A stretch of DNA of 64,000 bases from Bacteroidales bacterium UBA5762. Its GTDB lineage: Bacteria > Bacteroidota > Bacteroidia > Bacteroidales > TTA-H9. The DNA lies in NCBI GenBank assembly GCA_002418865.1, contig DIEY01000100.1:2170-66169 (forward strand), given 5' to 3'. This document shows positions 37,452-59,616 of this stretch, in pieces. Each line of letters opens with the position of its first letter. Position 1 is the stretch's first letter. The notes beneath the pieces are model-generated. The model was given only the letters and a program-made list of their open reading frames with translations. It searched no databases and had not been told where the DNA came from. The position numbers and the translations under genes were made by a program.

Positions 37452-37467
37452 TAAAGTGTTTTTTTAT

Positions 37468-37501: not shown

Positions 37502-37656
37502 ATTTCTTTCCCTTCTCTTCCCCCTCATCAATTCACTAGATTCCCTTCCAAACTTTTCCACCCACCCTTTCCACCTCATAACCAATCCATGCGTCTAATA
37601 AATAATGAATGTTCTATCAAATTCTCATAATTTTGCCCTTCTGAAGTATTATACTT

Positions 37657-39117
37657 ATGAACATTCAACTTAAACAATACTATACCTACCAAGATTTCAG
37701 CTCAAACTGTGCATTCCTGCTTTCATCGCTTGAAGATATTCCCGAAAATTGGCTGAGTTCTGACGAAGCATACTATTTACAACGAATAAAAACAAATTCA
37801 CCTGACGAAATAATTTTCCCTATTAACCGAGCTAATTATTCATGGTTCTTTATCTTACCTCAGCCAGATGAAAACATAGCAAAATATCTCGAAAACATTC
37901 GTTTGGCCGGATATCGTCTTAACAAATACACTCGTAAGCAAGGGATAAAAGAATTAAATATCTCTTTGTTTCATTCATCTTCGCATAATTTGTATGCCTT
38001 AGCCGAAGGCATCATATTAAGTGATTATTCATTCCAAAAATATCGAAATAAAAAGAATAAAGTGAACAAGCTTCTGGAATCAGTCTATATCTTATCAGAA
38101 GATTTCACCGAAAAACAAATTCAAGAACTTCAAATCATAACTGAAGCCGTTTACTTTTGTCGCGACCTTGTTAATGAAATTCCTAGCAAGTTAAATGCAG
38201 AAACTCTGGCCGAAGTGCTTAAGCAAAAAGCCGAAGAAGTTAGTATGAGGGTCGAAGTGATGAATAAGGAAAAAATAGAGTCTTTAAGGATGGGAGGCTT
38301 GTTAGGTGTAAACAAGGGAAGCTCTATTCCTCCCACATTTACTGTACTCGAATGGAAGCATCCGCAAGCCATCAATCGGCAACCCATCGTATTTATAGGA
38401 AAAGGAATCACTTTCGACAGTGGTGGCATGAACATCAAAACGGGCACATATATGGAAAACATGAAATCAGACATGGCAGGAGCAGCTACAGTTGCCTCTG
38501 TTGTGATAGCTGCCGCCCGCTTATCTTTACCCATTTATGTCTTGGCCTTTATACCAGCTACCGATAACCGCATCAACTCAGACGCCATTGTTCCCGGTGA
38601 AATCATCACGATGTATAACGAAACAACCGTTGAAGTGGTCAACACCGATGCCGAAGGAAGATTAATTTTGGCAGATGCCTTAAGTTATGCAAGCAAGTTT
38701 GATCCTTTACTCACAATTACAGCGGCTACGCTCACAGGTGCAGCAGCCCGAGCCATAGGAAAATTTGGCATCGTAGTTATGCAATCGAAAGCCAAGGCCC
38801 AACTCGAATGGCTCAAAAAAAGCGGAGAGGAAGTTTATGAACGTTTGGTCGAATTTCCTTTATGGGAAGAATATTTCGATTTGATAAAATCGGATATAGC
38901 CGATATAAAAAATTCAGGCCCAGCCGAAGCAGGTGCTATTACGGCAGGAAAATTCCTCGAATATTTTACTTCTTATCCTTTCATTCATCTTGATATTGCA
39001 GGAACGTCATATACCGAAAAACACGAAGACTATAGAGGGATTGGAGCCACTGGAACGGGAGTGAGACTTTTGATATCCTTTCTCCAAAATTTTATTCAAA
39101 ACACTCAAAATCAATAA
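37657..39117 (+). CDS. pepA: leucyl aminopeptidase (M17)
   Basis: M17 signature NTDAEGRLILADAL and GKGITFDSGGMNIK. Confidence 0.9.
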   Translation: MNIQLKQYYTYQDFSSNCAFLLSSLEDIPENWLSSDEAYYLQRIKTNSPDEIIFPINRANYSWFFILPQPDENIAKYLENIRLAGYRLNKYTRKQGIKELNISLFHSSSHNLYALAEGIILSDYSFQKYRNKKNKVNKLLESVYILSEDFTEKQIQELQIITEAVYFCRDLVNEIPSKLNAETLAEVLKQKAEEVSMRVEVMNKEKIESLRMGGLLGVNKGSSIPPTFTVLEWKHPQAINRQPIVFIGKGITFDSGGMNIKTGTYMENMKSDMAGAATVASVVIAAARLSLPIYVLAFIPATDNRINSDAIVPGEIITMYNETTVEVVNTDAEGRLILADALSYASKFDPLLTITAATLTGAAARAIGKFGIVVMQSKAKAQLEWLKKSGEEVYERLVEFPLWEEYFDLIKSDIADIKNSGPAEAGAITAGKFLEYFTSYPFIHLDIAGTSYTEKHEDYRGIGATGTGVRLLISFLQNFIQNTQNQ

Positions 39118-39118
39118 T

Positions 39119-40249
39119 ATGAACCACGATAGATTGAATAAGGTGGAAAATCAAGACGAGAATCTCAGTTCTCAAGAGCAGGAATTGATTCGCGTCGGTT
39201 TAACCCAAGGCGATTTTAATGGAATAGGATATGAAGTCATTTTGAAAGCCCTTTCCGAAATTGGAAATTCATGCAATTTCATTCCTGTTTTATATGGTTC
39301 TTCGAAAATAGTCTCTTATCATAGAAAAACCCTGAGTATTCCCGATTTGCCATTCAATCATGTTCGAAAGGCATCACAAATCCAAGCTCAAAAAGTCAAT
39401 ATCGTAAATATCACGGATAAAGAAATTAGAGTAAGTCTGGGGCAATCTACCCCAGAAGCAGGAGAAATGGCATACCTATCTCTTAAAGAAGCTTGTAAAG
39501 ATTTAGAAGAAGAACTGATTGACGTTTTAGTCACTGCTCCTATCAATAAATACAATATCCAATCTGACGAATTCCAGTTCATAGGGCATACTGAATATTT
39601 AGCGCATAGATTCAATGCTCACAATACTATCATGATAATGGTGAGCAACGATTTAAAGTTAGGTTTTGTTACCAATCATCTTCCCATCCGACAAATAGCC
39701 GATGCAATTACTACAGAGCTTATCTATAATAAGATTAAAGCCTTGGATTTGTCTTTATTTCAGGATTTTGGCATTAGCCATCCCAAGATTGCTGTTCTAA
39801 GTCTCAATCCTCATGCTGGAGATAATGGTTTATTGGGAAATGAAGAAAAAGATATTATCAATCCTGCCATTCATCAAGCTTATGAAGAAGGAATTCTTGC
39901 ATTTGGCCCTTATCCGGCAGATGGATTCTTCGGAATGAATCTTTATAAAAAATTCGAGGGAGTGTTAGCCATGTACCACGATCAGGCTTTGCCAGTATTT
40001 AAGCTTTTGGCACAAGGTTATGGTGTAAATTTTACGGCTGGTCTTCCATTCGTGAGAACATCCCCAACTCATGGTACGGCTTACGATATTGCAGGAAAAG
40101 ATTTAGCCTCGCATTATTCCATGAGAGAAGCCATTTATTTGGCTATAGATATTTTTAAAAATCGTCAAGAATATGCAAAAATGACAGCCAACCCACTTCG
40201 TTATTCTACTCAACATGGCCACGAAGAAACCGAAGAGGAAGAACTATAA
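39119..40249 (+). CDS. pdxA: 4-hydroxythreonine-4-phosphate dehydrogenase
   Basis: GDFNGIGYEVILKA, GHTEYLA, LNPHAGDNG and RTSPTHGTAYDIAG. The start is 1 nt after the pepA stop. Confidence 0.9.
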   Translation: MNHDRLNKVENQDENLSSQEQELIRVGLTQGDFNGIGYEVILKALSEIGNSCNFIPVLYGSSKIVSYHRKTLSIPDLPFNHVRKASQIQAQKVNIVNITDKEIRVSLGQSTPEAGEMAYLSLKEACKDLEEELIDVLVTAPINKYNIQSDEFQFIGHTEYLAHRFNAHNTIMIMVSNDLKLGFVTNHLPIRQIADAITTELIYNKIKALDLSLFQDFGISHPKIAVLSLNPHAGDNGLLGNEEKDIINPAIHQAYEEGILAFGPYPADGFFGMNLYKKFEGVLAMYHDQALPVFKLLAQGYGVNFTAGLPFVRTSPTHGTAYDIAGKDLASHYSMREAIYLAIDIFKNRQEYAKMTANPLRYSTQHGHEETEEEEL

Positions 40250-40262
40250 TCTTTAGCCTGCA

Positions 40263-42740
40263 ATGGATTATACCATCTCATCGCTTGCAAATCTCGTCTC
40301 TCCTCATTGGGTTTCACTTCCTTACCCAAACGATGCGATTCATTTTCTACTTACCGATAGCCGACGACTGATAGAGGCAAAGTCTACGCTTTTTTTCGCC
40401 ATCGCTACTTCACGCAATGATGGCCACCGCTATATTGAAGATCTTTTCAGAAAAGGAGTAAGAAATTTCGTCATCACTAATACCCAAATCTTCCCTAATT
40501 TATTAGAACATGCCAATCTGATTCAAGTTGAAAATTCAGTACATGCATTACAAAAGATTGCTGCTGCTCATAGGGCTGCATTTCAAATACCTGTTTTAGG
40601 AATCACAGGAAGTAACGGAAAAACCATTGTAAAGGAATGGCTCACTCAGATTCTATCTACTCAACTCTCTATTTGTGCTAGTCCAGATAGTTACAACTCT
40701 CAGATTGGCGTGCCTCTTTCGGTATGGCAATTAAACAGCCATCATCAACTGGGAATATTCGAGGCAGGCATATCGCAACCAAACGAAATGGAAAATCTTC
40801 AAAGAATAATTCGACCTAACTACGGAATCTTTACTAACATTGGACAGGCTCATTCTGAAAACTTCAATTCCATAGAAGAAAAAGCAAAAGAGAAATTAAA
40901 ACTTTTCAAAGACTCAGAAGTATTGATTTATTGCAGAGACGACGAGGTTATTCATCAATTAATAAAAAAATATTTAAATAAAAAAATAAAACTTATTACC
41001 TGGGGCGAAAACCCAGAATCTACATTTCGACTTATCCATAAAACACGAAATGGCAAATCCACCATTCTTTCCATATATTTTAAAAAGCACGAGAAAGTTG
41101 TAGAATTACCTGTTAGCGATAATGCCTCCATAGAAAATGCGATGCATTGTTATACCTTTCTCGATTATTTAGGATGGGATGATAAAAAAAAGGCCGAGGC
41201 TATGCTTCAACTCCATCCTATTCCCATGCGAATGGAAATGATGGAAGGTATCAACCAATGCACATTGATTAACGATACTTACAACAGCGATATCAATTCT
41301 CTCGAGGTTGCTCTTGATTATTTGAATAGACAGGCTGGCGACCGTCCAACTACGGTAATTCTTTCTGATATATTACAGAGCGGGCAAAATCCTGCCGAGT
41401 TATACAAGCATGTCGCTCATTTGTTAAATCAAAAAAAAGTGGGACGAGTGATAGGCATAGGTTCTGAAATATCAAAATACGCAGGCTTATTCCCCATGCA
41501 GAAACAATTCTACATTTCTACTAACCAATTTATGGTCGAATTTCCCTTTTCAAGCCTCCAAAACGATGTCATTCTGCTTAAGGGAGCTCGTTCTTTCGAG
41601 TTCGAAAACATTACGCGATTATTGAGGCGACTTTCCCATCAAACTGTGCTCGAAATCAATCTGGAAAATCTGATTCACAATTTCAATTTTTATAAGCAGA
41701 AAACAAGACCAGGGACACTTACATTGGCCATGGTGAAGGCATTTGGCTATGGAAGTGGAATGCACGAAATAGCCGGTGCTCTGCAGCAAAATGGAGTGGA
41801 CTGGCTTGGTGTGGCTTATCCCGACGAAGGAGCTCAGCTTAGAAAAGCCGGAATCCAAACGCCGATTATGGTTATGAATCCCGAAAACGAAAATCTCGAT
41901 CTTATAACGCAATATCATTTAGAACCAGAAATATATAGCCAGACTACATTAACCGAGCTGGCATATTACTTATCTTATCACCGACCCGATTATTTTCCCT
42001 TTCCTGTTCATTTAAAATTCGATACAGGCATGCACAGATTAGGATTTTTGCCCGAACAACTCGATGAAGCCCTCAAGTTTCTTAAACATCATCCCGAAAT
42101 CAAAATAAAGTCGGTATTTTCGCACCTTGCTGCCAGTGAAGATCCAAATATGGATTATTTTACACGAAAACAAGCCGGAATTTTCGAAGAAATGGCACAG
42201 AAAACTATGGAAGCCTTAGGATATTCCATTATCAGGCATTTGGTCAATTCAGCCGGAATAATACGATTTCCTGAGTATCATTACGAAATGGTACGCATTG
42301 GGCTCGGATTGTATGGAATAGGTCACGACCAACCAACACAGCGCTCGCTCCAATTAGTAAGCAAATTCTCGTCAGTAATCTCTCAAATTAAAATGATTCG
42401 CAAAGGCGAAGGAATAGGCTACAATCTGAGATGGAAGGCGCCTGCCGACACCCTTATCGGGATTGTCCCTGTGGGTTATGCCGATGGATTGCGAAGAGAA
42501 TTGGCGTCCAAAGGATTTTGTTTTAGCGTACATGGTCATATAGCTCCTTTAATTGGTACCATTTCTATGGATATGTGTGCCATTGATTTAACCGGCACAA
42601 ACGCAACAGAAGGCGACCCAGTCATCATTTTCGACAATGCAGATACCATTCACCAACTTTCTCGTTTACTTAATACCATCCCTTACGAAATATTAACTTC
42701 TATCTCCCAACGAGTTAGAAGAGTATATCTCATGGGTTAA
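40263..42740 (+). CDS. bifunctional UDP-MurNAc-tripeptide:D-Ala-D-Ala ligase (MurF) / alanine racemase (Alr)
   Basis: The N-terminal half has the Mur ligase P-loop (GITGSNGKT). The C-terminal half has the PLP-binding Alr motif (AMVKAFGYGSG) and PVGYADG. Confidence 0.9.
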   Translation: MDYTISSLANLVSPHWVSLPYPNDAIHFLLTDSRRLIEAKSTLFFAIATSRNDGHRYIEDLFRKGVRNFVITNTQIFPNLLEHANLIQVENSVHALQKIAAAHRAAFQIPVLGITGSNGKTIVKEWLTQILSTQLSICASPDSYNSQIGVPLSVWQLNSHHQLGIFEAGISQPNEMENLQRIIRPNYGIFTNIGQAHSENFNSIEEKAKEKLKLFKDSEVLIYCRDDEVIHQLIKKYLNKKIKLITWGENPESTFRLIHKTRNGKSTILSIYFKKHEKVVELPVSDNASIENAMHCYTFLDYLGWDDKKKAEAMLQLHPIPMRMEMMEGINQCTLINDTYNSDINSLEVALDYLNRQAGDRPTTVILSDILQSGQNPAELYKHVAHLLNQKKVGRVIGIGSEISKYAGLFPMQKQFYISTNQFMVEFPFSSLQNDVILLKGARSFEFENITRLLRRLSHQTVLEINLENLIHNFNFYKQKTRPGTLTLAMVKAFGYGSGMHEIAGALQQNGVDWLGVAYPDEGAQLRKAGIQTPIMVMNPENENLDLITQYHLEPEIYSQTTLTELAYYLSYHRPDYFPFPVHLKFDTGMHRLGFLPEQLDEALKFLKHHPEIKIKSVFSHLAASEDPNMDYFTRKQAGIFEEMAQKTMEALGYSIIRHLVNSAGIIRFPEYHYEMVRIGLGLYGIGHDQPTQRSLQLVSKFSSVISQIKMIRKGEGIGYNLRWKAPADTLIGIVPVGYADGLRRELASKGFCFSVHGHIAPLIGTISMDMCAIDLTGTNATEGDPVIIFDNADTIHQLSRLLNTIPYEILTSISQRVRRVYLMG

Positions 42741-42753
42741 AAACTATTCTCTC

Positions 42754-45054
42754 ATGGAACAAGCCACCTTGAGTATTATAATTCCTGCTTATAACGAAGA
42801 AAGAACCATTGCAGAAGTTACGCGTAGGGTTTGGGAAACACCATTACAAGAAAACGTTACTCGCGAAATTATCATCGTAGACGACGGAAGCAAAGATGCA
42901 ACCGTAAAAGTAGTAAAAGAATTCTTGAATCAAAATAACGACAAGAATATCCGATTGATCGAATGTGGGAAAAATCGTGGGAAAGGAGCAGCTATTCGTG
43001 AAGGAATAAAACAGGCCAGTGGCAAATGGATCATTATTCAAGATGCAGATATGGAATATAATCCTCGAGATTACAATATCTTGCTTCAACCTGCACTCGA
43101 AGGATATGCCGATGTGGTTTACGGGTCGAGATTTGTGGGAGGCAATCCTCACCGCATCCTATTTTTTTGGCATTCTATCGGAAATAAATTCCTTACTTTT
43201 ATTTCGAATGCTTTCACTAATCTCAATCTCAGCGACATGGAAACCGGCTATAAACTGTTTAGAGCCGATATATTAAAGAGTATAGAATTAGAAGAGAATC
43301 GTTTCGGATTCGAAACAGAGGTTACAGCAAAGATTGCCCGAATACCTGGAATTCGTATCTACGAAGTAGGTATTGCCTACTATGGCCGAACCTATGAAGA
43401 AGGGAAAAAAATAAAGGCAAAAGATGGATTTCGTGCATTATACACTATTCTAAAATATAACCTCCAACGCAAAAATCCCCGACGTCCTGTTGCCTTGGCT
43501 ATTACCCTGCTTTTATTGTTCATACTTGGTTTGAAAATCAATGATTATTACAAGGGAAAACCATTCAATTTCACTGTCAACGATGCGGGTGAATATTACC
43601 AGTATCTGCCTGCTCTTTTCATTCATCACGATCTTGGATTTAGCTTTCTCGATAAAACAACTCCTGCCGAATACATACATTATTATAAATTTTCGGCCCT
43701 TCGTTTAGAAAATGGAAAAGCTACAGGTAAAATGAGTTTGGGCATGGCTATGATGCTTACCCCAGGTTTCCTCATCGCTCATGGTATAGCCTTATTAACT
43801 GGCTTACCTGCCGATGGATTCTCGCCTCCTTATCAATGGGCAATTCTCCTGAGTAATTTACTTTTTTTAGGACTTGGAATCTACTTTACGCTCAAAACCC
43901 TTTTCCGTTATTTCGACAGCATTGCCTCGGTGGTAACCATTATTATGTTAGTGCTTGCAACTAACGTATTGGCTTATGTTTACCTGCATCCTGGATATTC
44001 CCACATCTTTACTTTTGGTTTAATGGGAATGCTCTTGTATGTAACCGATAGTTTTTATCGCAAACCATCCATCGGGCTGGCCATTAAGTCAGGTTTGCTT
44101 ATGGGTTTTATCAGTCTCATACGACCGAGCAACACAATAGTCGGACTGCTATTTTTGCTTTGGGGAACGCTTTCAGTTGGCGACTTAAAAAAAAGATTCC
44201 AATTTTTCATAAAGAATTATCATCTGGCTTTGATAATTGTTGCTTCAATCCTCATAGTCTGGCTGCCACAAATGATTTATTGGAAATGGGTAAGCGGCAA
44301 GTTTTTCTTATACACTTATGGACTAAAGGAAGAAAGATTTTATTTTGGTAATCCTCAAATAATTAATGTTTTACTAAGCTATCGCAATGGATGGCTGGTT
44401 TATTCCCCTCTGTTTTTCCTTGCATTGCTTGGTTTTATTTTTATGATAAAGAACAAAAACCGACAAGTGTTAGCCATAGGTTTATATTTTATTGGACTGG
44501 TATATATTATTTCATCGTGGTGGTGCTGGTGGTATGGGGGTTCGTTTGGAGCTCGTAGCTTAATAGATGCCTACCCGGCTCTGGCTTTCCCATTAGCAGC
44601 TTTCTTCGAAAAAACCGAAAAAACTCCTTGGTGGATACAAGTCTTACTACTTGTTGTGTGCGCTTATCTCATCCATCTGAATTACTATCAATCTTATCAA
44701 TATTCCAAAGGAATCATACATTGGGATGGAATGTCGAAAGAAGCCTATTGGAGATCTATAAAAGAAAAACATCCTCAAAAAGATTATTATCAATTATTTG
44801 TAATTCCCAATACGCCTTATGCCCAAAAAGGAATTTATTTCGTACACGATACCTTGAACATTCGAAAGCCTCAAACTTTGGGAGAGAAAGAATTTATCGA
44901 AAAAATAAAAAGCAATATTCGGATTAATAAAGAATGGATGCAAGTAATAGAAGAAAAAGCCAAACGAAAAGGAATATCTATTGATTCTATGGTCACACTC
45001 GATGCTCTACACGTTTTCAAAACTAGATATCACGACAAAGTTCCAAAACAATAG
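42754..45054 (+). CDS. fusion of a GT2 polyprenol-phosphate glycosyltransferase-like domain (aa ~1-235) with a large polytopic GT-C-like membrane domain
   Basis: GT2 motifs LSIIIPAYNEE, IIVDDGSKD and QDADMEY (DxD). About 12 hydrophobic segments follow, beginning with a conserved loop VNDAGEYYQYLPALFIHHD. The start is 13 nt after the murF-alr stop. Confidence 0.75.
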   Translation: MEQATLSIIIPAYNEERTIAEVTRRVWETPLQENVTREIIIVDDGSKDATVKVVKEFLNQNNDKNIRLIECGKNRGKGAAIREGIKQASGKWIIIQDADMEYNPRDYNILLQPALEGYADVVYGSRFVGGNPHRILFFWHSIGNKFLTFISNAFTNLNLSDMETGYKLFRADILKSIELEENRFGFETEVTAKIARIPGIRIYEVGIAYYGRTYEEGKKIKAKDGFRALYTILKYNLQRKNPRRPVALAITLLLLFILGLKINDYYKGKPFNFTVNDAGEYYQYLPALFIHHDLGFSFLDKTTPAEYIHYYKFSALRLENGKATGKMSLGMAMMLTPGFLIAHGIALLTGLPADGFSPPYQWAILLSNLLFLGLGIYFTLKTLFRYFDSIASVVTIIMLVLATNVLAYVYLHPGYSHIFTFGLMGMLLYVTDSFYRKPSIGLAIKSGLLMGFISLIRPSNTIVGLLFLLWGTLSVGDLKKRFQFFIKNYHLALIIVASILIVWLPQMIYWKWVSGKFFLYTYGLKEERFYFGNPQIINVLLSYRNGWLVYSPLFFLALLGFIFMIKNKNRQVLAIGLYFIGLVYIISSWWCWWYGGSFGARSLIDAYPALAFPLAAFFEKTEKTPWWIQVLLLVVCAYLIHLNYYQSYQYSKGIIHWDGMSKEAYWRSIKEKHPQKDYYQLFVIPNTPYAQKGIYFVHDTLNIRKPQTLGEKEFIEKIKSNIRINKEWMQVIEEKAKRKGISIDSMVTLDALHVFKTRYHDKVPKQ

Positions 45055-45074
45055 CAAAATTTTGAGAATCAAGC

Positions 45075-46484
45075 ATGACATTCAATTCACTGCCTTTTCT
45101 TATTTTTCTGCCTATTGTCGTCATCACATATTATCTTTTAGCACCAAAGTGGCGATGGATAATGCTACTCGCGGCCAGTTACTTGTTTTATATGTGGTGG
45201 AATCCAGCCTATATCATTTTAATTCTTTTTTCAACCCTTATTAATTTTTACTCGAGTCATGCCATCGAAAGACATGCATCAAAACAACAAAAGAAAAAAT
45301 ATCTTTACTTATGCTTAATTACCAATTTAGGAATTTTATTTATCTTTAAATATTATGGCTTATTTACACAAGCCTTCATGGGTATTGCCGATATTTTTGG
45401 TGTAAAAGCCCGCTTGCCTTTTCTCAATTTATTACTTCCAGTAGGAATCTCATTTTATACTTTCCAAACTTTAAGTTATACCCTAAATGTATATTTTGGG
45501 AAACAAAAAGCGGAAAAACATCTCGGATATTTTGCTCTTTTTGTTACTTTCTTTCCTCAGTTAGTAGCCGGACCCATAGAGCGCTATGATAGGCTTACAC
45601 CTCAGTTGAAAACCCCACATTATCCTTCATACGAAAACTTTTCCAATGGTTTTAGGCTAATCATTTTCGGATTATTCATCAAAATGGTTATTGCAGACAA
45701 TTTAGCTCCTTACGTAGAAGAAATTTACAGTCAACCTGCGGCATACAACACTTTTCACCTTATGGCAGGGCTTGGGTTTTATTCCTTTCAGATTTATGCC
45801 GATTTTTATGGATATTCGACCATAGCCCTTGGTTCGGCTCTACTAATAGGGGTCAATTTAATGGATAATTTCAAGACTCCTTATTTATCGGCAAGCATTC
45901 GGGAATTTTGGAGACGCTGGCATATCAGTCTTAGTACATGGTTCCGCGATTATGTTTATATTCCTCTTGGAGGCAACCGTGTAAAATGGAGCAGATGGGC
46001 ACTTAATATCTTCATAGTTTATACACTGAGCGGATTGTGGCATGGCGCCAATTGGACATTTTTAATTTGGGGAAGTATTTTTGGTCTTATGTTCATTATT
46101 GAAAGATTTTTCTACGAACGCTTCGGAATTATCAGTACACAGAAATGGGGAATAAGAAGAATTTTTGGCGTGCTCATCACTTTTGTAATCGTCACTCTTG
46201 CATGGATTTTTTTCCGTAGCAGCTCATTATCGAATGCCCTCTCCATGTTCGAGGCATTATGGAATAACACTGTATTGGCCGATCCATGGCGGCCCGATCC
46301 TTTTATAATGTTCTGGCTTGGATTGTTCATTATTCTCGATATACTCCTTTTTAACAACCGTTTCGATCAATGGTGCTCTAAAAAACCTTTATGGCTGAGA
46401 TGGACTATCTACACATTGCTCATTTTCGGTATCACAGCCTTTAGTGGAATAGATAATCAACCCTTTATATATTTCCAGTTCTGA
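45075..46484 (+). CDS. MBOAT family membrane-bound O-acyltransferase (AlgI/DltB/PatA-like)
   Basis: Polytopic protein with MBOAT signatures FFPQLVAGPIERY and the invariant His region FWRRWHISLSTWFRDYVYIPLGG. Confidence 0.9.
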   Translation: MTFNSLPFLIFLPIVVITYYLLAPKWRWIMLLAASYLFYMWWNPAYIILILFSTLINFYSSHAIERHASKQQKKKYLYLCLITNLGILFIFKYYGLFTQAFMGIADIFGVKARLPFLNLLLPVGISFYTFQTLSYTLNVYFGKQKAEKHLGYFALFVTFFPQLVAGPIERYDRLTPQLKTPHYPSYENFSNGFRLIIFGLFIKMVIADNLAPYVEEIYSQPAAYNTFHLMAGLGFYSFQIYADFYGYSTIALGSALLIGVNLMDNFKTPYLSASIREFWRRWHISLSTWFRDYVYIPLGGNRVKWSRWALNIFIVYTLSGLWHGANWTFLIWGSIFGLMFIIERFFYERFGIISTQKWGIRRIFGVLITFVIVTLAWIFFRSSSLSNALSMFEALWNNTVLADPWRPDPFIMFWLGLFIILDILLFNNRFDQWCSKKPLWLRWTIYTLLIFGITAFSGIDNQPFIYFQF

Positions 46485-48013
46485 TGAAGCCGCTTGCCGC
46501 CAAAATATTGCCCCGCCTTTTCATATTAGCCATTATTGCTTTTCTATTGAATTGGATCTATACCGTTGAGTTTTATCCCCGCGACCTGAAAAAAATCGAC
46601 TTACTCGATTCTCTCCAGAAAGTTATACCTCAATCCGATGTCATCTATTTCGGAGAATCATCCAATTTTAGTTTTATATATGAAGACTACGATCAACGCC
46701 GCATAAGTGATTTCATAACTGATTATTTTCCGGGACTGCAAATGGGTACGGTCAATAAAGGAGCCTTGCATGCCGGCATCTATCTGAGACTGCTGCAGCA
46801 AATTCCACCTGAGGCTCCCGTAAAAACAATAATTATTACCATGAACCTGCGTTCCTTCTCTGCCGACTGGATTTATTCGAAACTCGAAAACGTGTTACAA
46901 CGCGACATGGTTCTTATTAGCGATGGACCTCCACTTTGGAATCGATTCCGTTTAGGACTCAAGGCTTATGATAATAAAACCTCCATGCAGCGTAGCCTGC
47001 AGGTAAAACATGCTCTAAAAACCCAAGCTTTACCTGTTGACCCTCCTTGCAACTTCCCCAATGCGGCCGCATGGATAGAAACCATCAAGAAATCGCCAAC
47101 TTATCCCTTGATTGAAGATAGTGTAGCAAAAGCACTGGCCGTTTCATTCGTCATCAATTATGGTTTTCAAATCGATACCATGGATAATCCAAGAATTCAT
47201 GATTTTGATGATATCGTAAAATACGCTCACCAAAGAGGTTGGCAGGTAATATTGAATATTTTACCTGAAAATACACAGCTATCTTCTGCATTATTAGGGC
47301 CATGTCTTAAAAAACTAATGATGAGCAATGCAGAATTGCTCACCAAAAGATACGAAAGTCAAGGTGCAATCGTAGTAAATAATCTCGAGTTGGTTGATTC
47401 ATCACACTTCAGCGATAAAAAATGGCCAACCGAGCATTACGATGAGTATGGTCGAAAAATGGTAGCCCGTCAAATAGCTCTAAGCATGAAAAATCTTTAT
47501 CCAAACTATTTTTCCGATGTATTCATGAAATCCAATTTCACTTGTGATTACGAAACCCCATCACCCTTTTTTCTTACACTTAGAAAAGATTCAACTTGCT
47601 CTCGTTCGGGAAAATTTGCCGAGAGACTCGATACGAATAACGCATTTGGAGCCAGATTTGTCAGACATTATTACGAAGTGAAAACTCTTAATCCTCAAAA
47701 AATTACTGCCAGCGGATGGTTTACTGGAAACTATCAGCCTAAGGATGTAAAACTCATCATTAGCATCGAAGATGATAAGAAACAAAGCAAACTTTGGACG
47801 GCTAGCGTTTCGAAAGACATGGAAAATGGGAAATGGGCTTCACTACAAGTGAGTGCAACTATTCCCGAGAATTTCGGCCCTAATGATGTAATAAAAGTAT
47901 ATTTCTGGTACACAGGGAAAAACTCGGTCTGGATAGATGATGTAAACATTACGCTACAAACTGAGAATTTGAACACTGAATCCGATACAATTTCTTCTTT
48001 AATCGAAAATTAA
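46484..48013 (+). CDS. membrane-anchored extracytoplasmic protein: SGNH/DltD-like N-terminal domain (tentative) plus C-terminal beta-sandwich (CBM-like) domain; probable partner of the MBOAT protein
   Basis: Its ATG overlaps the MBOAT stop (TGATG). Single N-terminal TM helix. GDS-like block VIYFGESSN and block-V-like WPTEHYDEYGRKMVARQIA. The C-terminal 160 aa are homologous to the C-terminus of the next gene. Confidence 0.6.
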   Translation: MKPLAAKILPRLFILAIIAFLLNWIYTVEFYPRDLKKIDLLDSLQKVIPQSDVIYFGESSNFSFIYEDYDQRRISDFITDYFPGLQMGTVNKGALHAGIYLRLLQQIPPEAPVKTIIITMNLRSFSADWIYSKLENVLQRDMVLISDGPPLWNRFRLGLKAYDNKTSMQRSLQVKHALKTQALPVDPPCNFPNAAAWIETIKKSPTYPLIEDSVAKALAVSFVINYGFQIDTMDNPRIHDFDDIVKYAHQRGWQVILNILPENTQLSSALLGPCLKKLMMSNAELLTKRYESQGAIVVNNLELVDSSHFSDKKWPTEHYDEYGRKMVARQIALSMKNLYPNYFSDVFMKSNFTCDYETPSPFFLTLRKDSTCSRSGKFAERLDTNNAFGARFVRHYYEVKTLNPQKITASGWFTGNYQPKDVKLIISIEDDKKQSKLWTASVSKDMENGKWASLQVSATIPENFGPNDVIKVYFWYTGKNSVWIDDVNITLQTENLNTESDTISSLIEN

Positions 48014-48080
48014 TCACTCCAAATAAATTTTCTATCTTTCAAAAATTTATATCACTTACTATTGAATTAATAACACATTT

Positions 48081-49922
48081 ATGAAAAAGATAAAATACCC
48101 CATTTCGACAGCAAGTCTGCTCTTATGTGTGATTGTATTAATAGGTGTGCGCTTGAATTATCCTCCCAAAAATATATTGACGTACGATACTTTTGGCTAT
48201 TATATTCATTTACCCGCCCGTCATATTTACCACGACCCTATGATTCAAAATTTCGAGTGGGTAACGGAAATAAACCAGAAATACAATAACACTCCAACAT
48301 TTTATCAATTTTCAGAAGGAATAAACGGACAGAAAGTCATTCGTTTTAATCGAGGTATTTCTTACCTTCTGGCTCCTGGGTTCTATGCCGGCCATGTTTG
48401 GGCAAAATTGAGCGGAGCTCCTCAAGATGGCTTCTCTAAACCCTACCAACAAGCAATTTGGATCTGGGGAATGATTTTTAACCTCTTGGGATTCTATCTC
48501 ATAAAAAAAATTCTGCTCCGTTATTTTAACGATCTTACCACAGCCATAACACTGGTAGTTATTCTACTGATAAGTAATCTTTATTTCTTTTATGGCTACG
48601 GCAACGATATTCCTCATGTTTATTTGTTCACTCTCAACGCTGCTCTCATTTGGTTTAGCATTCGCTGGCATCATCATTTTAAGATATGGGATGCAGCCCT
48701 TATTGGATTTACGCTTGGCATCATCGCTATTACACGCATGAGTGAGATACTCATCGTTTTTATTCCATTATTATGGGGCGTAAAAAATAAAGAAAGTCTA
48801 CATTCACAATTACGACTCTTCTGTAATAAATGGCAACATATTGTGTTTGCCGTAATTGCAGGAATTATTCCTATATTAAGCCAGATTATTTACTGGAAAC
48901 AAGCCTCTGGACAATTTGTGTATCATGTTTATACAGATCCGGGCTCAACGCTCGATTTGATGAATCCACGGTTTTTTTATACTTTACTAAGTTTCCGCAA
49001 GGGCTGGTTGATATATGTTCCTGTGATGATATTTGCTTTATGGGGTATCTACAAGGCCTTCCGCAGAAAGGAAGAATGGGCATGGGCTGTATTAGTGTAT
49101 ATTGCACTCAATTTTTATGTGATTTCAAGTTTTAGCAGCTTGTTAAGCTATGGATGGAGGGCTTTTCTCCAGTCGTATGCCGCACTTGTTCTTCCCATGG
49201 GCATATTTATACAATGGATGCTTTCGAGAAAACCTCTCGCCATCGCTGGATGGTGCATTATTCTGGCAATCTTAGGTGTAATAAACATCTTTCAAGCATG
49301 GCAAATCAATATGGGTATCATCGACGGTTCACGCATGACGATGAAATATTATGTTTCGGTTTTTATGAAAAAACATCCTCCCGAAAATGCAAAAAAATAT
49401 CTTTTGGTTCAGCGCTCGGTCACTGGCAGAGAAAATTTGGAAAAAACTGACAACTATTTCAACCATGTCTTAAAATTTTACGATTTCGAAACACCTAATC
49501 CCAACCTTAAGTCACATATCGATTCCATCGTTTCTTTTTCGGGAAAATATTGTTTGAGGCTGGACAGTACGATTGAATATACTCCCGGACTCGAATGTTC
49601 TTATGGCGATATAAGTAATGGTAAATATGCATGGATAAGAATCAGTGCAAGGGTATATCCTACCCAACAGCTCGAAGATGCTTCGGTTTCGCTGGTGACG
49701 CACGCCATTCGAAACAAACAGACTTATAAATATTCAGCGAGAAAAATTACAGATACAATTTTCCACGTACAACCCAATCAATGGAATTATGTCTGGCACG
49801 ATTACATGACCCCCGAACCAATTTCAGCCGAAGATGGCATCAAAAGCTATATTTGGAACCGAAGCAAGTACCCGGTATTTATCGACGATATCCGCATCGA
49901 AGTATTCGAACCCATTCTGTAG
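48081..49922 (+). CDS. polytopic GT-C-like membrane protein (paralog of the membrane domain of 42754..45054) with C-terminal beta-sandwich (CBM-like) domain
   Basis: About 11 hydrophobic segments. Conserved loops YDTFGYYIHLPARHIYHD and GAPQDGFSKPYQQAI match the upstream fusion protein. The C-terminus ends YPVFIDDIRIEVFE. Confidence 0.7.
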   Translation: MKKIKYPISTASLLLCVIVLIGVRLNYPPKNILTYDTFGYYIHLPARHIYHDPMIQNFEWVTEINQKYNNTPTFYQFSEGINGQKVIRFNRGISYLLAPGFYAGHVWAKLSGAPQDGFSKPYQQAIWIWGMIFNLLGFYLIKKILLRYFNDLTTAITLVVILLISNLYFFYGYGNDIPHVYLFTLNAALIWFSIRWHHHFKIWDAALIGFTLGIIAITRMSEILIVFIPLLWGVKNKESLHSQLRLFCNKWQHIVFAVIAGIIPILSQIIYWKQASGQFVYHVYTDPGSTLDLMNPRFFYTLLSFRKGWLIYVPVMIFALWGIYKAFRRKEEWAWAVLVYIALNFYVISSFSSLLSYGWRAFLQSYAALVLPMGIFIQWMLSRKPLAIAGWCIILAILGVINIFQAWQINMGIIDGSRMTMKYYVSVFMKKHPPENAKKYLLVQRSVTGRENLEKTDNYFNHVLKFYDFETPNPNLKSHIDSIVSFSGKYCLRLDSTIEYTPGLECSYGDISNGKYAWIRISARVYPTQQLEDASVSLVTHAIRNKQTYKYSARKITDTIFHVQPNQWNYVWHDYMTPEPISAEDGIKSYIWNRSKYPVFIDDIRIEVFEPIL

Positions 49923-50084: not shown

Positions 50085-50732
50085 TCAAGATAGATCGGAA
50101 CTAATAAGGTGAATAAATTCTTCTCGGGTTTCTTTGCGCGTAAATGCACCCGTAAAATCGGAAGTTGTGGTTACCGAATTTTGTTTTTGAACGCCTCGCA
50201 TAGCCATGCACAAGTGTTTTGCTTCTATTACAACGGCTACACCTAAAGGATTAAGAGCCTCTTGAATACATTCCTTAATTTGTGTAGTAAGACGCTCCTG
50301 AACCTGCAAACGTCGTGCATAAGCATCTACAACTCTGGCAATCTTACTTAAACCCGTGATGTATCCGTTGGGAATATAAGCCACATGCGCTTTCCCAATA
50401 AAGGGGATCATGTGGTGCTCGCACAAGCTGTATATCTCAATATCCTTAACGATTACCATTTGCCTATAATCTTCTTTAAACCGAGCCGAAAGCAACATTT
50501 CCTTCGGATCAAGGTCGTAACCATGAGTAAGAAATTGCATAGATTTTGCCACTCGCATAGGCGTATCAAGCAAACCATCACGATCGGCATCTTCTCCAAT
50601 CAATTTTAAAATTTCATGATAGTGATACGATAACTTTTCCAGTGTTTCGTAATTGTATTTGTCAATTTTCTTATACCCTTCGAGGGAATTTTCTTCTATC
50701 ATATCGTGAATAATCTTTTCGTTGTTATGCAT
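50085..50732 (-). CDS. folE: GTP cyclohydrolase I
   Basis: Type I FolE motifs [30 protein letters not shown] and QVQERLT. Confidence 0.95.
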
Positions 50733-50794
50733 AAAGTAAAGTAAATATCGAGTGTAACAAAGGATTGAACATTGGATAAACTAAAATGTTTAAT

Positions 50795-51208
50795 TTATTT
50801 TCCAAAATATTCAACAGAATTATTTTCGGTTTCTTCGAGTCTGATTTTATAGAGCTGAGCTCCGCTTTCAAGAATGGGTTGTTCGAGTTGCTCCCATATT
50901 GCCATGGCGATAATTTCGGTAGAAGCCATTCTCCCTTGCATAAAATTCACTTCAGTGTTAAGGTTCTTGTGATCCACCTTTTCAATCACATATTGTTGAA
51001 TGATCTGGCTTAATTTTTTCAGGTTGACGACCATGCCAGTTTCGGCGTCGGGAATTCCTTTCACGGTAATATAAAGTACATAGTTGTGTCCATGCCAATT
51101 GGGATTGCTACATTTACCGAAAATCTCGAAATTTTTTTCATCGTTATATTCGGGCTTGAAAAGACGATGAGCAGCATTGAAAGTCTCACGCCGGGTAAGA
51201 TATATCAT
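50795..51208 (-). CDS. 6-pyruvoyl-tetrahydropterin synthase family protein (PTPS/QueD family, eukaryote-like Cx5HGH type)
   Basis: The ATG at 51208 gives MIYLTRRETFNAAHRL. Active-site segment FGKCSNPNWHGHNY. Confidence 0.85.
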   Translation of the reverse strand: MIYLTRRETFNAAHRLFKPEYNDEKNFEIFGKCSNPNWHGHNYVLYITVKGIPDAETGMVVNLKKLSQIIQQYVIEKVDHKNLNTEVNFMQGRMASTEIIAMAIWEQLEQPILESGAQLYKIRLEETENNSVEYFGK

Positions 51209-51212
51209 GATC

Positions 51213-51602
51213 TTATGGGTTTTTCTTACGAAGATGGGGCAAAAGTGCAGAAAGTTCAAAAAAAGTGTAAATTAAGTAAAATATGAAGAAACATACGGTA
51301 AAGGCTTTAAAATCTTTTGGAAAAAGAAATGCATAAAGGATTAATATTAATACAAACACAAGTAGACGGCCGGCAGTGGATAGCATGTAAAAGTTGACAA
51401 ATTTTTTCGGATTTTGACGAATTAGTTTGACGGCCATATTATTGTATACCAAGGTATGGGCCATAAAAAAAATAAGAATAAATGGCATAGCCGGCGTAAT
51501 AATACCTTTTGGTAGAATAAAAGTTAAAATAGTACCAATAATGGCAAGAAATACCGAAAGTATAACCAATTTACGTAAATAATGCTTAAACTCATTCGTC
51601 AT
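51213..51602 (-). CDS. small polytopic membrane protein (4 predicted TM helices), unknown function
   Basis: 129-aa ORF. Its start overlaps the upstream AtpZ-like gene by 11 nt, and its stop lies 4 nt before the PTPS start. Confidence 0.6.
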   Translation of the reverse strand: MTNEFKHYLRKLVILSVFLAIIGTILTFILPKGIITPAMPFILIFFMAHTLVYNNMAVKLIRQNPKKFVNFYMLSTAGRLLVFVLILILYAFLFPKDFKAFTVCFFIFYLIYTFFELSALLPHLRKKNP

Positions 51603-52266: not shown

Positions 52267-54939
52267 TCAATTTTTCTTCAGATATTCCTTTTCAAAAAAC
52301 ACTTTATACTGCGAAATGTCTCTGTCTTGATAAAAGAGTTGATAATTTTTTGTCGAAATAGCATAGACTTCATAAAATTTACCCTTAAGCATCGAAAAAA
52401 CATACTCGTTGTCTATAATCTGATGGTAATAATCCAATGCTTTAGAAGCATTCTTAAAGACGCCTATACTAATAATTTGCAATGTATCATTCAAGAGAAT
52501 GTCAGAAATGTAGAAATTTTCCAATCGGAAGGCACGTTCATTAAAATCTGCTATTCTGATTTTAAGGGCATTGATATCTGTTTGGGAAGGATTAGCCATG
52601 ATGACCACAAAATGATCGCTTTGGGATTCCATCACATAAGTTACTTTAGGAGTTTCGGAACCCGGGGATGTACTAATGGTGTCGCCAGGTATTTGAATTC
52701 TCGAACTCACTGAAGGATCTAATTTAGAAAGTTGATCGAGAATATCATGAGCCAAAGCCACCAACTCATGCTTGGGGTAATGTAAGATGAAACGTTGTAA
52801 ATTGATAGCCAAAGAATCGGCCACATCAATTTTCCCTATAGAGATTGCCCTTAAAAATTCAAATTTCGGTAAAAGAGGATGATTGGGAAATCGATTGACT
52901 GCATCATCACAATTCATTACCACTAAATAATACTGGCCTGATTGATAGGCTCGATAAGTATTAGTATAAAACTCGTCTACACTTTTGTTTTTTCTTTCCA
53001 TTTCTTGAACATAGGCAGGATCACCTAATATTTTGGCATAATCGGTAGTGGGGAAGTTGCTTGTGAGAATGTTACGATAGTAATCGGCCTTTTCTTTATT
53101 GCCCAGCTTCTCATTGAGCACTACCAGCTGATAACAGCTCAGCAAATAGTGCTTATTCATACTCGTATCGGGATAACGTTCTACTAGTTGCTCGAAGGTT
53201 TTTTCGGCATTAACCAAATCGAACAAGCCTTCGCGATATATAAAAGCGGCATTGAAAAGCGCTTCTATTATGTTTTGATTGCTTTGCTGAAGTTTTTCGG
53301 GGGTTAGAGGAAGGTTTTGCAAATATGTCTCACGTTTTAACGGATCATTCGAGATTTTGGCTATAAGGCTGTCGGAAGTTATGGAATCTGACGAGGCTAA
53401 AGTTTGCTCTTCTTCCCAAACTGCTATTACTTGTTTATTGCTAAGTCGCCAGAGGTCTTCGAGTTTTCGGTTGCCCCATTTTCTCCTGAATTCGGTAAAT
53501 CCCAAGCTAATAGCCGAAGGATTATAAAAATACCATGCGCCCGATGGATTCATTTGTTGTTCTATTCTATTTTGCCCTAGTGTAGCAAGATCGCTCTGCC
53601 TAAGCATTTCTTCCTCTTGCTTTTTCTTTTCTTCTTCAGCATATTGGGCAATGATTCCATCTATAACCTTCATGCGTTCGGCTTCGGGCATCAATGCCAA
53701 ACGCTGAAGACTGTCTTCGGTCTGCACAATAATGAGATTGTTGACCAACTCTGTAAGAACCTGCGACTTATTCTGAAGTGAATCGTAATGAGGATGCTCC
53801 TTGGGCAAAGCCTGCAAAGCCGTATCGTAATAAGCTTGCGAAAGAAAGTAATCAGGTTTTTCAAAATATAAATTGGCTAAAATCAACGAAGACTGTACTC
53901 TTTGGAAATCATTGTCTTTGCTTGTGGCAACAGAAAGCCGAAGATTTTCAATCGCTTGCGCCCTATTCCCTTTTTTTAAGTCAACTTCGGCCAGAGCATA
54001 GTAAACCTGATCTTGATAAGGCTTGTTTTTCTCTTCTTTTAACATATTGCGCAGCATCTTTTCGATATTGTCGGCCTCTCCTGAATTTACATCGTAACAC
54101 CTGGCCAGATTGAGCTGAGCAGCAAATTGCATATTGTAAGGCGGCGTCCGTTTTATAACCTCCTGAAACATTTGAGAAGCATTGGCCAGATCGTTATTTT
54201 GCAAGTATAACTGACCCAAGATGAAATGCAAACGCGTTTTGTCGGATTTTTTCCTGCTTAAATTCGTAGCAACATGCAAAGTCTTGATAGCCTCATTGGT
54301 TTTATTTTGTTTCAAATAAAAATCGGCCAATACCTTGTTATAGAACAACATCATACTACGTGGCATAGTTTTCTTTGCCGAAAGCATACGAAATTTCTCC
54401 AATTCAGCCTCCGAGCGAGAATATTGCTCCATTTGGTTATTGGTTAATCCTAACCAAATATAAACTTCGGGAATTAATGGGGAATCTTTATAACGAGAAA
54501 GGATAAATTCGAAAGTTCTTCTTGCCGATGCATAATCCTGCTTGTAAAAATATGCTTTGCCTATCATCATGTAACTGTCGTCAATCCAACGGTTATACTC
54601 TTTTTTATTAAAATACATGCTGTTGTTTTGTATCACCTTCGATGCTTTTTCGATAGCCCTGTCGGCTTTGGCATTGATGGCAGCTATTTCTTTTTTCGAT
54701 CCCAATTTGAATACCGGAAGAACTTCTGTATAATTATCATTGGCATTCTTTTCCAAATCCTTGACAGCATCTTTCAAACTTTCATTGCCATTCCACCATG
54801 TATTGTAATGGGCCGTCAGATTATGATAAACCCTCCGGCTGAATGTGTTTTTCTTGTTTGAACAGGCCGTGGGTAAAATTATGGCAACAATCCATAAAAC
54901 AACGACTATGCTTTGAGGTATAAAATTTCTACTTTTCAA
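52267..54939 (-). CDS. TPR-repeat outer-membrane lipoprotein, PorW/SprE-like (type IX secretion/gliding)
   Basis: The TTG at 54939 gives the lipoprotein signal MKSRNFIPQSIVVVLWIVAIILPTAC. It is followed by SNKKNTFSRRVYHNLTAHYNTWWNG, which resembles the SprE/PorW N-terminus as I recall it. Many TPR-like repeats. The ORF is open up to the TTG at 54993. Confidence 0.6.
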   Translation of the reverse strand: MKSRNFIPQSIVVVLWIVAIILPTACSNKKNTFSRRVYHNLTAHYNTWWNGNESLKDAVKDLEKNANDNYTEVLPVFKLGSKKEIAAINAKADRAIEKASKVIQNNSMYFNKKEYNRWIDDSYMMIGKAYFYKQDYASARRTFEFILSRYKDSPLIPEVYIWLGLTNNQMEQYSRSEAELEKFRMLSAKKTMPRSMMLFYNKVLADFYLKQNKTNEAIKTLHVATNLSRKKSDKTRLHFILGQLYLQNNDLANASQMFQEVIKRTPPYNMQFAAQLNLARCYDVNSGEADNIEKMLRNMLKEEKNKPYQDQVYYALAEVDLKKGNRAQAIENLRLSVATSKDNDFQRVQSSLILANLYFEKPDYFLSQAYYDTALQALPKEHPHYDSLQNKSQVLTELVNNLIIVQTEDSLQRLALMPEAERMKVIDGIIAQYAEEEKKKQEEEMLRQSDLATLGQNRIEQQMNPSGAWYFYNPSAISLGFTEFRRKWGNRKLEDLWRLSNKQVIAVWEEEQTLASSDSITSDSLIAKISNDPLKRETYLQNLPLTPEKLQQSNQNIIEALFNAAFIYREGLFDLVNAEKTFEQLVERYPDTSMNKHYLLSCYQLVVLNEKLGNKEKADYYRNILTSNFPTTDYAKILGDPAYVQEMERKNKSVDEFYTNTYRAYQSGQYYLVVMNCDDAVNRFPNHPLLPKFEFLRAISIGKIDVADSLAINLQRFILHYPKHELVALAHDILDQLSKLDPSVSSRIQIPGDTISTSPGSETPKVTYVMESQSDHFVVIMANPSQTDINALKIRIADFNERAFRLENFYISDILLNDTLQIISIGVFKNASKALDYYHQIIDNEYVFSMLKGKFYEVYAISTKNYQLFYQDRDISQYKVFFEKEYLKKN

Positions 54940-59608: not shown

Positions 59609-59616
59609 AAACACTT

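Follow-up and report, generated by a model that had tools for sequence, protein, structure and literature searches.

Four successive plus-strand open reading frames (ORFs), here called G1 to G4, follow the murF::alr fusion gene in the 64-kb stretch of Bacteroidales bacterium UBA5762 DNA that we analyzed as a whole (the window, to which position numbers refer unless a relative is named). They raise the question of whether a glycosylation and an acylation machinery encoded side by side serve one polymer of the cell envelope. An earlier note on this DNA had proposed exactly that, a dedicated system that both glycosylates and O-acylates one envelope polymer. Our ORF map fully agrees with the gene arrangement described there: the four genes span positions 42754-49922, with 13 nucleotides (nt) between murF::alr and G1, 20 nt between G1 and G2, a 1-nt overlap (−1 nt) between G2 and G3, and 67 nt between G3 and G4 (Table 1). 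Having compared the window with the corresponding stretches of relatives (loci L001 and so on), we consider it on balance probable that the four proteins form two coupled periplasmic modules, one for glycosylation and one for O-acylation (probably acetylation), that act on one envelope glycan.

In the mechanism that we propose, the cytoplasmic GT2 domain of G1 would load one sugar from a nucleotide sugar onto polyprenol phosphate, a flippase encoded outside the block would flip the lipid-linked sugar, and the GT-C domain of G1 together with G4 would move the sugar to acceptors at the periplasmic face via D277 (G1) and D36 (G4). In the acylation module, G2 would load its own Tyr466 on the periplasmic side with an acyl group, for which acetyl supplied by acetyl-CoA is the most likely candidate; the GESS serine of G3 would then pick this group up and transfer it to the glycan. 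A β-sandwich resembling the carbohydrate-binding modules (CBM) of families 16 and 22, present on both G3 and G4, would recognize the substrate and thereby link the two modules.

G2 ends in the acyl-shuttle motif of PatA-type acyltransferases

The assignment of G2 to the membrane-bound O-acyltransferases (MBOAT), already made in the earlier note, was borne out by Pfam (Table 1). Its catalytic-type histidines, His283 in WHIS and His323 in WHG, are conserved and align with those of DltB, which was also the best match of G2 among both NCBIfam models and PDB sequences. The match to DltB 6bug (E = 4e-27) covers only amino acids (aa) 118-380 of 469, and the C-terminal helices of G2 are extra to this DltB-like core. 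Moreover, the score against the DltB equivalog TIGR04091 (155 bits) stays below the cutoff of 375. The last six residues of G2, aa 464-469, read FIYFQF. The same terminus was found in all 68 intact G2 orthologues of our species survey, which was anchored on G3 and retained 80 loci from the 352 relatives found. According to the PatAB study (JBC 2025), acyl-CoA MBOATs that are paired with an SGNH protein end in two helices absent from DltB, and these bear an FxYxxF acyl shuttle, the tyrosine of which is auto-acetylated before the acetyl is passed to the SGNH serine (PMC12148441). This shuttle was shown experimentally for PatA and proposed for every acyl-CoA-using MBOAT-SGNH pair, whereas in the Dlt system the donor is DltC and the shuttle motif lies on the microprotein DltX (PMC12148441). 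Because G2 and all of its intact orthologues end in FIYFQF, we place G2-G3 in the PatA/AlgI mechanistic class and not in the Dlt class. By analogy, the two proteins are most likely an acyl-CoA-dependent MBOAT-SGNH pair, with acetyl as the predicted donor group.

The likeness to DltB raises the alternative of a Dlt-like D-alanylation, with G2 as DltB, G3 as DltD and D-alanine from the neighboring alanine racemase being placed onto an envelope polymer. Besides the sequence matches of G2, this explanation can draw on DltD, which like G3 has an N-terminal anchor, as the best fold match of the G3 catalytic domain and on alr lying two genes upstream. Nevertheless, we regard it as highly improbable. 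The unmet DltB cutoff speaks against it, as does the FxYxxF motif that G2 carries on extra helices of its own, which is the signature of MBOATs working without DltX and DltC. DltA, DltC and DltX were not conserved neighbors when ORFs of at least 90 aa were compared across the 80 loci, the 20-nt and −1-nt junctions are too small for them, and none of the window ORFs scanned gave an AMP-binding or PP-binding match. In addition, most species have no murF::alr in the vicinity of G2-G3. A Dlt system was thus rejected, since DltA, DltC and DltX were not found in the block and the MBOAT itself bears the shuttle motif.

The modeled fold of G3 resembles DltD, without a match in Pfam, NCBIfam or PDB sequences

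The earlier description of G3 as a single-pass, SGNH-like protein with GDS-like and histidine blocks proved accurate. One N-terminal membrane anchor precedes an extracytoplasmic part in which the blocks GESS (aa 57-60), NLRSF (aa 121-125) and TEHY (aa 316-319), and within them the residues S59, S60, N121 and H318, are invariant in 30 homologues. The AlphaFold2 (AF2) model of G3 (pLDDT 89.8) matched DltD 3bma and 7dxm in Foldseek over ~370 aligned columns with a probability of 1.0. As a single sequence, G3 had no real match in Pfam or NCBIfam and only two chance-level matches in the PDB (E = 0.43 and 1.3). A profile of 30 homologues found nothing among PDB sequences at E ≤ 10, PatB and Ape1 included, and a lax Pfam scan of the individual family members returned only spurious TRAPP matches. 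Because these Pfam, NCBIfam and PDB sequence searches were empty, it is by fold that G3 is related to DltD. In this model, the GESS serine is the predicted acyl acceptor of a partner protein with conserved serine and histidine.

Two more familiar identities were considered for G3 and discarded, that of a PatB/Ape-type partner, for which there was no sequence match, and that of an AlgX-type partner, since the ALGX model (PF16822) matched neither G3 nor its 29 aligned homologues. The G3 family comprises 489 protein clusters, of which every one with a source name belongs to the Bacteroidota, and it was detected in at least 352 species genomes. From the modeled fold, G3 would represent a new, Bacteroidota-only partner family of PatA-type MBOATs with a DltD fold and without a Pfam or NCBIfam model.

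The pair resembles PatA/PatB and the MBOAT-SGNH class in the FxYxxF that its MBOAT bears on extra C-terminal helices and in the anchored SGNH-fold partner beside it, with neither carrier nor microprotein (PMC12148441). It differs from PatA/PatB in the lack of sequence likeness between G3 and PatB/Ape, in a fold that is nearest to DltD and in the additional CBM-like domain. The combination of an MBOAT with an SGNH-like transferase is also that of AlgI/AlgJ/AlgX. AlgX has an SGNH-like domain with a carbohydrate-binding module behind it, and in this two-domain logic G3 is alike. In contrast to the Alg system, G3 has no Pfam ALGX match and the block holds no AlgF-like or polymer-export genes.

Since the SGNH fold is common to hydrolases and transferases, G3 could in principle take acyl groups off, as an esterase or deacylase in the way that Ape1 is one relative to PatB. 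We find this scarcely credible: in nearly all loci G3 is translationally coupled to a shuttle-bearing MBOAT, it is membrane-anchored as DltD is, and the pair has no second SGNH protein. In the 80 species loci, G2 and G3 are adjacent in all but two (78/80), mostly 3-10 nt apart or with a 1-nt overlap.

G1 joins a GT2 domain to a membrane domain paralogous to G4

The N-terminal domain of G1 is, as the earlier note had it, a GT2 domain with a DxD motif (DAD, aa 97-99). Its closest solved relative is the dolichol-phosphate-mannose (Dol-P-Man) synthase of P. furiosus (5mlz, E = 2e-17, aa 5-235), followed in the PDB by Synechocystis sll0501 and then by ArnC. The best NCBIfam matches were AglJ, PgfS, ArnC and PpgS, each far under the equivalog cutoff. 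By sequence, the domain is a GT2 of the polyprenol-phosphate-sugar-synthase type. Behind it lies a membrane domain, of which aa 240-677 align with aa 2-436 of G4 at 29% identity (E = 2e-51). An NCBIfam family of putative glycosyltransferases, LA_3751/LA_3752, matched aa 363-651 of G1 under its cutoff (E = 1.7e-14). The first-loop Asp277 of G1 is conserved and aligns with Asp36 of G4, and its paralogy with G4 makes the membrane domain of G1 a candidate GT-C enzyme as well.

Fusions of this kind are common, with more than 90 clusters of 640-840 aa covering most of G1. Orthologues of the GT2 domain also exist as stand-alone proteins of 242-244 aa that have no transmembrane (TM) helix. In two relatives (L167 9001-11839 and L168 5192-8030), a gene for an NAD-dependent epimerase/dehydratase is followed by a stand-alone GT2 of 242 aa and then by a separate protein of 604 aa. 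As this stand-alone GT2 shares a 90% identity cluster with the N-domain of G1, the fusion or fission must be recent, and judged from these comparisons the link between GT2 and GT-C is evolutionarily labile. The epimerase beside the GT2 gene hints at a sugar other than a simple hexose.

G4 is a GT-C-fold enzyme

The earlier note had also recognized G4 as a second, paralogous membrane protein of GT-C type, and besides the alignment with G1 this is backed by structure. The AF2 model of G4, built with 36 homologues, reached a pLDDT of 90.3, and its membrane part matched EmbA/B/C, PglB, ArnT 5ezm, ALG12, AftA and STT3 in Foldseek, all of them GT-C enzymes. On the strength of these matches, we rejected a transporter or another non-GT-C fold for the membrane domains. 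Asp36 in the first loop is invariant in the 36 homologues. On its own, G4 had no real match in Pfam or NCBIfam and no sequence match in the PDB. Weak matches to PMT_2 (PF13231, GT39) appeared in 13 of the 36 homologues, the best with E = 6.7e-7, and in neither G4 nor G1.

Three-component polyprenol-phosphate-sugar systems such as GtrA/GtrB/GtrC, ArnC/ArnEF/ArnT, CsbB/GtcA/YfhO and PpgS/Rv3779 (overview in PMC11127046) offer the nearest known logic, in which a GT2 charges polyprenol phosphate with one sugar and a GT-C transfers it outside the membrane. The block described here differs from them in the fusion of GT2 to GT-C, in the second GT-C paralogue, in the lack of a flippase gene and in missing the equivalog cutoffs. 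EmbA/B/C, the top Foldseek matches of G4, likewise have a GT-C part followed by a C-terminal β-sandwich of carbohydrate-binding type; they share 8-11% identity with G4, are much larger, use decaprenylphosphoryl-arabinose (DPA) as donor and serve the actinobacterial cell wall only. In Ppm1 of M. tuberculosis, a GT2 polyprenol-phosphate-mannose synthase is fused to a polytopic anchoring membrane domain, as in G1. The membrane domain of Ppm1 is Lnt-like and not GT-C, unlike the putative GT-C domain of G1.

In some relatives, G4 homologues are flanked or followed by a conserved set of genes for a GT2 of ~285 aa, an S-adenosylmethionine methyltransferase, an FrhB/FdhB-like protein and, 3' of G4, a flippase-like LPG_synthase_TM protein (Table 1). 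In those relatives, a second sugar, lipid-linked or modified, and a flippase may come from this set. We looked for it in the 64-kb window and found it absent, the LPG_synthase_TM gene included.

A common β-sandwich as the proposed link between the two modules

A domain common to G3 and G4 had been suspected in the earlier note, and the comparison confirms it: their C-terminal domains are homologous both as single sequences (BLASTP E = 5e-8) and at family level (hhalign probability 98.7%, E = 1.6e-16). In Foldseek, the C-terminal sandwich of G3 matched CBM16, CBM22 and CBM61 modules and the C-terminal 150 residues of G4 matched CBM22 and CBM16 modules. A fold of this kind suggests that the substrate is a glycan, and we consider the sandwich a putative substrate-recognition module. 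About one quarter of the G3 homologues are missing it.

The domain family is large. At E ≤ 1e-3, a profile search returned 4,415 representative clusters, and at E ≤ 1e-10 there were still 2,033. The architectures begin with stand-alone proteins of 150-250 aa and extend to a length of 1,300 aa, where the domain is present three times. Of ten carriers sampled, nine had no Pfam match and the tenth had a weak one to CBM_4_9. In related clusters, the sandwich is also part of a YfhO-like GT-C, of an AT3+sulfatase-type protein and of proteins with 9-10 TM helices of no recognized family. The strongest argument for one substrate, indirect as it is, lies in this recognition module being common to periplasmic modifying enzymes of several classes. 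Should the sandwich mark one substrate, it would provide a handle (pull-downs, glycan arrays) on a Bacteroidota envelope polymer, and dozens of "hypothetical" membrane enzymes would become assignable to the decoration of that polymer.

Gene neighborhoods link the modules in some lineages and separate them in others

The string pepA-pdxA-murF::alr-G1-G2-G3-G4 is whole in L001, L002, L081 and L083 and partial in L003, with G3 identities from 81% down to 44%, and the exact four-gene block is limited to one narrow Bacteroidales clade. The earlier note had treated the four genes as one unit; the block is kept together in these loci, and elsewhere the G2-G3 pair is autonomous. For a wider view, we surveyed metagenome loci anchored on the G4 family, counting features within 10 kb in the 34 loci that extend 3 kb or more to either side. 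In raw counts of these phylogenetically non-independent loci, a stand-alone GT2 orthologue, 59-65% identical to the N-domain of G1, lies near the G4 homologue in 14/34 (directly adjacent in eight), an MBOAT in 11/34, an AlgX-type partner in 10/34 and murF::alr in 11/34. The string pepA-pdxA-murF::alr precedes GT2/GT-C genes in the four whole loci and in ~12 distant metagenome loci.

The MBOAT encoded beside GT2 and GT-C::sandwich genes in distant loci is of a second type. It shares 35% identity with G2, has FIYF[KR]F as its terminus and is paired with a true ALGX-domain protein; the AlgX-type partners in L091 and L149 match the ALGX model. In L149, the order on one strand is pepA-pdxA-murF::alr-GT2-GT-C::sandwich-MBOAT-X-X-AlgX-like-X. 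By sequence likeness, this second pair looks like a non-orthologous replacement of G2-G3 in distant Bacteroidota. Across lineages, GT2, GT-C::sandwich, MBOAT and an SGNH-like partner are thus assembled 3' of murF::alr with non-orthologous acylation pairs, and because the same combination recurs with such pairs we favor a functional link over an accident. The claim of one dedicated unit for one polymer can be upheld to this extent, indirectly, through the common sandwich and through the recurrent murF::alr-GT2-GT-C::sandwich string with another MBOAT and an AlgX-type partner; the fact that most G2-G3 loci have no GT-C does not agree with it.

Cultured carriers of the G2-G3 pair are Pedobacter arcticus A12, Brumimicrobium glaciale and B. 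oceani. In P. arcticus A12 (L025 7235-18856), the pair has a skp/ompH-like gene on one side and tamB with an Omp85-family gene on the other, a setting typical of outer-membrane biogenesis. The neighbors of the pair in this species and in Brumimicrobium glaciale gave no consistent clue to the polymer.

These neighborhoods bear on an alternative that we hold to be unlikely and still worth serious attention, namely that the modules are merely juxtaposed by a lineage-specific rearrangement within a housekeeping operon, G2-G3 acylating one polymer and G1/G4 glycosylating another (e.g., lipid A/lipopolysaccharide core or proteins). Such an arrangement would account for G2-G3 being without GT-C genes in ~74 of the 80 species loci and without any other conserved neighbor family, for the outer-membrane setting in Pedobacter and the unrelated neighbors in Brumimicrobium, and for the GT2 plus GT-C pairs that stand alone in L167 and L168. 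It fits poorly with the family-level homology of the C-terminal domains of G3 and G4 and with the different MBOAT and AlgX-type partner beside GT2 and GT-C::sandwich in distant lineages (11/34 well-flanked loci). Because these distant lineages hold a different MBOAT/AlgX pair at the equivalent position, acylation and GT-C modules appear to have been joined repeatedly.

Several observations weigh against two coupled modules on one glycan. The G2-G3 pair usually has neither a GT-C nor an orthologous GT2 within 10 kb in the 80 species loci, so acylation and glycosylation modules can work independently. Clustering of ORFs of at least 90 aa across these loci revealed no further conserved neighbor of G2-G3 in the form of a carrier protein, ligase, esterase or exporter. 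No dedicated small flippase (GtrA/SMR-like) is encoded in the four-gene block, which has no additional ORF. The metagenome counts come from loci that are not phylogenetically independent, and the GT-C fold of G1 is drawn from paralogy. In G3, which has no sequence-level likeness to any solved SGNH transferase, block V reads T-E-H and not the canonical DxxH. Finally, the sandwich has no Pfam model, with its weak CBM_4_9 match confined to one sampled relative, and what suggests carbohydrate binding is the likeness of its fold.

The candidate substrate

The position of the block suggests peptidoglycan as a more specific target: the genes would extend murF::alr, G2-G3 would be an O-acetyltransferase pair like PatA/PatB and the GT-C proteins would glycosylate the sacculus or a wall-linked polymer. 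The order pdxA-murF::alr-GT2-GT-C persists in ~12 loci in which MurF::Alr identity is merely ~47%, the mechanism predicted for G2 is the one described for PatA (PMC12148441), and Bacteroides peptidoglycan is O-acetylated (PMC1199599). We still judge this target improbable. In Bacteroides and Porphyromonas, the role is already assigned to clusters of Pat (MBOAT) and Ape type (OAP; PMC1199599), and G3 has no sequence likeness to any solved protein, PatB and Ape1 included, its fold match being DltD. The string contains pepA and pdxA, which have no wall function, and the pepA-pdxA-murF::alr operon is therefore better described as mixed housekeeping. With no more than 352 species genomes in which it was detected, the G3 family has an accessory function.

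A broader idea is that GT2/GT-C enzymes, MBOAT-SGNH pairs and other sandwich-bearing enzymes (YfhO-like, AT3+sulfatase) form a periplasmic toolkit of the Bacteroidota that works on general protein O-glycans. According to a 2025 review, the O-glycan oligosaccharyltransferase, ligase and core-glycan flippase of this phylum are undiscovered, the place of attachment of their frequent O-acetyl and O-methyl groups is not known, and homologues of eukaryotic O-mannosylation, that is a GT2 Dol-P-Man synthase and a GT-C protein O-mannosyltransferase (PMT), should be searched for (PMC12871550). The toolkit could add acetyls and extra sugars after glycan transfer or, in the extreme form, include a PMT-like transfer step that depends on a lipid-phosphate sugar. 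We rate this as a long shot. None of our findings contradicts it, and none connects these families with glycoproteins. The patchy spread of the G3 family, as counted above, argues against a core, phylum-wide role in O-glycans, and the epimerase genes beside some GT2/GT-C pairs argue against mannose as the sugar.

As for novelty, each part of the two proposed modules is of a known kind, and by analogy PatAB and systems of the GtrB/GtrC type allow the chemistry to be predicted. What is new is the G3 family with its DltD fold, the large sandwich family without a model, the fusion of GT2 to GT-C next to a further GT-C paralogue, and the repeated pairing of glycosylation with acylation beside murF::alr. 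In agreement with the earlier note, which did not recognize the architecture as a described system, our literature search found no description of these elements, of the cluster or of a Bacteroidota GT2-GT-C/MBOAT system. That note had also named findings that would speak against it; what we found instead were a GT-C fold in the G4 model, co-occurrence of the genes in other genomes and no match to a characterized exopolysaccharide or O-antigen acetylation locus. Identical copies of all four proteins are present in public Bacteroidales and Lentimicrobium-like metagenome-assembled genomes, where they are annotated merely as "hypothetical", "GT2 family" or "MBOAT family". The envelope chemistry of Bacteroidota shapes immune recognition, resistance to phages and antimicrobials and gut colonization, and the periplasmic steps of glycan modification are largely unassigned in this phylum.

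Transcriptional context and neighboring genes

The earlier note had let the co-directional string begin after the strong gdhA terminator and had seen no terminator within it. Our terminator scan supports both statements, with a 17-bp stem at the upstream limit and no plus-strand hairpin of comparable strength in 37504-49922, where the weak matches are 5-8-bp stems within coding sequence. Given the close spacing and the lack of a strong internal terminator, it is plausible that G1-G4 are co-transcribed with pepA-pdxA-murF::alr. A Bacteroidota −7-type box (TAATTTTG) in front of pepA is a candidate promoter for the whole string, and a motif search found no such box within the 67-nt gap between G3 and G4. 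The call at pepA is a tentative one because TAnnTTTG shows no enrichment over the window as a whole (67 matches vs. 76 expected). Identical TAATTTTG boxes lie 5' of gdhA (36036-36043) and 5' of pepA, consistent with −7 elements. A sigma-70 promoter scan of the window gave results at chance level, the sigma-70 consensus being uninformative for Bacteroidota.

Table 1. Positions of the G1-G4 block, its parts and upstream genes in the window, and of related features in other loci
Feature	Position	Strand	Length	Basis or remark
gdhA intrinsic terminator	37466-37503	+		17-bp stem, 13 G-C pairs, then T-rich tail; upstream limit of co-directional string
−7-type box TAATTTTG	37628-37635	+		22 nt 5' of pepA ATG; candidate promoter, motif level
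pepA	37657-39117	+	486 aa	Pfam/NCBIfam
pdxA	39119-40249	+	376 aa	Pfam/NCBIfam
murF::alr fusion	40263-42740	+	825 aa	PRK11930, 1067 bits (cutoff 804)
G1 (GT2::GT-C)	42754-45054	+	766 aa	GT-C part putative, by paralogy
G1 cytoplasmic GT2 domain	42754-43473	+	aa 1-240	Pfam PF00535 at aa 7-176, 121 bits
G1 DAD (DxD) motif	43042-43050	+	aa 97-99
G1 membrane domain and ~100-aa C-terminal tail	43474-45054	+		TM1 at aa 245-263; at least 9 hydrophobic segments to ~aa 660 (hydropathy)
G1 Asp277	43582-43584	+		First loop
G2 (MBOAT acyltransferase)	45075-46484	+	469 aa	Pfam PF03062, 108 bits (cutoff 27)
G2 FIYFQF terminus	46464-46481	+	aa 464-469
G3 (DltD-like SGNH fold and sandwich)	46484-48013	+	509 aa
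G3 signal anchor and DltD-like SGNH-fold domain	46484-47518	+	to ~aa 345	Anchor at aa 4-30
G3 GESS block	46652-46663	+	aa 57-60
G3 TEHY block	47429-47440	+	aa 316-319
G3 C-terminal β-sandwich	47522-47968	+	aa 347-495	CBM16/22-like; domain hidden Markov model (HMM) 128 bits
G4 (GT-C and sandwich)	48081-49922	+	613 aa
G4 GT-C-fold membrane domain	48081-49400	+	aa 1 to ~440	AF2 and Foldseek
G4 Asp36	48186-48188	+		First loop
G4 C-terminal β-sandwich	49458-49916	+	aa 460-612	Foldseek CBM22/CBM16; domain HMM 178 bits
Second MBOAT/ALGX loci	L091 7129-9868; L149 11852-13312 and 17234-18760; L086 1-2580
Further sandwich carriers	L091 13903-16932; L081 13595-17212	−
Further sandwich carriers	L149 13328-15211, 15292-17220, 18800-20680
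G4-flanking set in relatives	L083 13486-17376; L081 19361-21482; L086 4863-7856 and 9839-10690			GT2, methyltransferase, FrhB/FdhB-like, LPG_synthase_TM

Within the string, PdxA makes the precursor of the pyridoxal phosphate that Alr needs, and the order pdxA-murF::alr is kept across Bacteroidota loci at ~47% identity. Elsewhere in the window, three ORFs of 452, 220 and 207 aa (26190-27548, plus strand; 27556-28218, minus strand; 59536-60159, plus strand) had no Pfam match at E ≤ 1e-4. The region 52267-58720 encodes a tetratricopeptide repeat protein of 908 aa with a YfiO/BamD-like segment on the minus strand, followed on the plus strand by genes for an M23 peptidase, for the isoprenoid-precursor enzyme Dxr (dxr) and for an M50 protease of RseP type. 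This neighborhood is envelope-related. Finally, the genes for GTP cyclohydrolase I (folE) and a 6-pyruvoyl-tetrahydropterin synthase (PTPS) converge on the end of G4 from the minus strand (50085-51259). The folE/PTPS pair also occurs near a rearranged neighborhood of GT2, MBOAT-G3 and murF::alr-pdxA-pepA in L027 (2646-3706), suggesting an old syntenic region.

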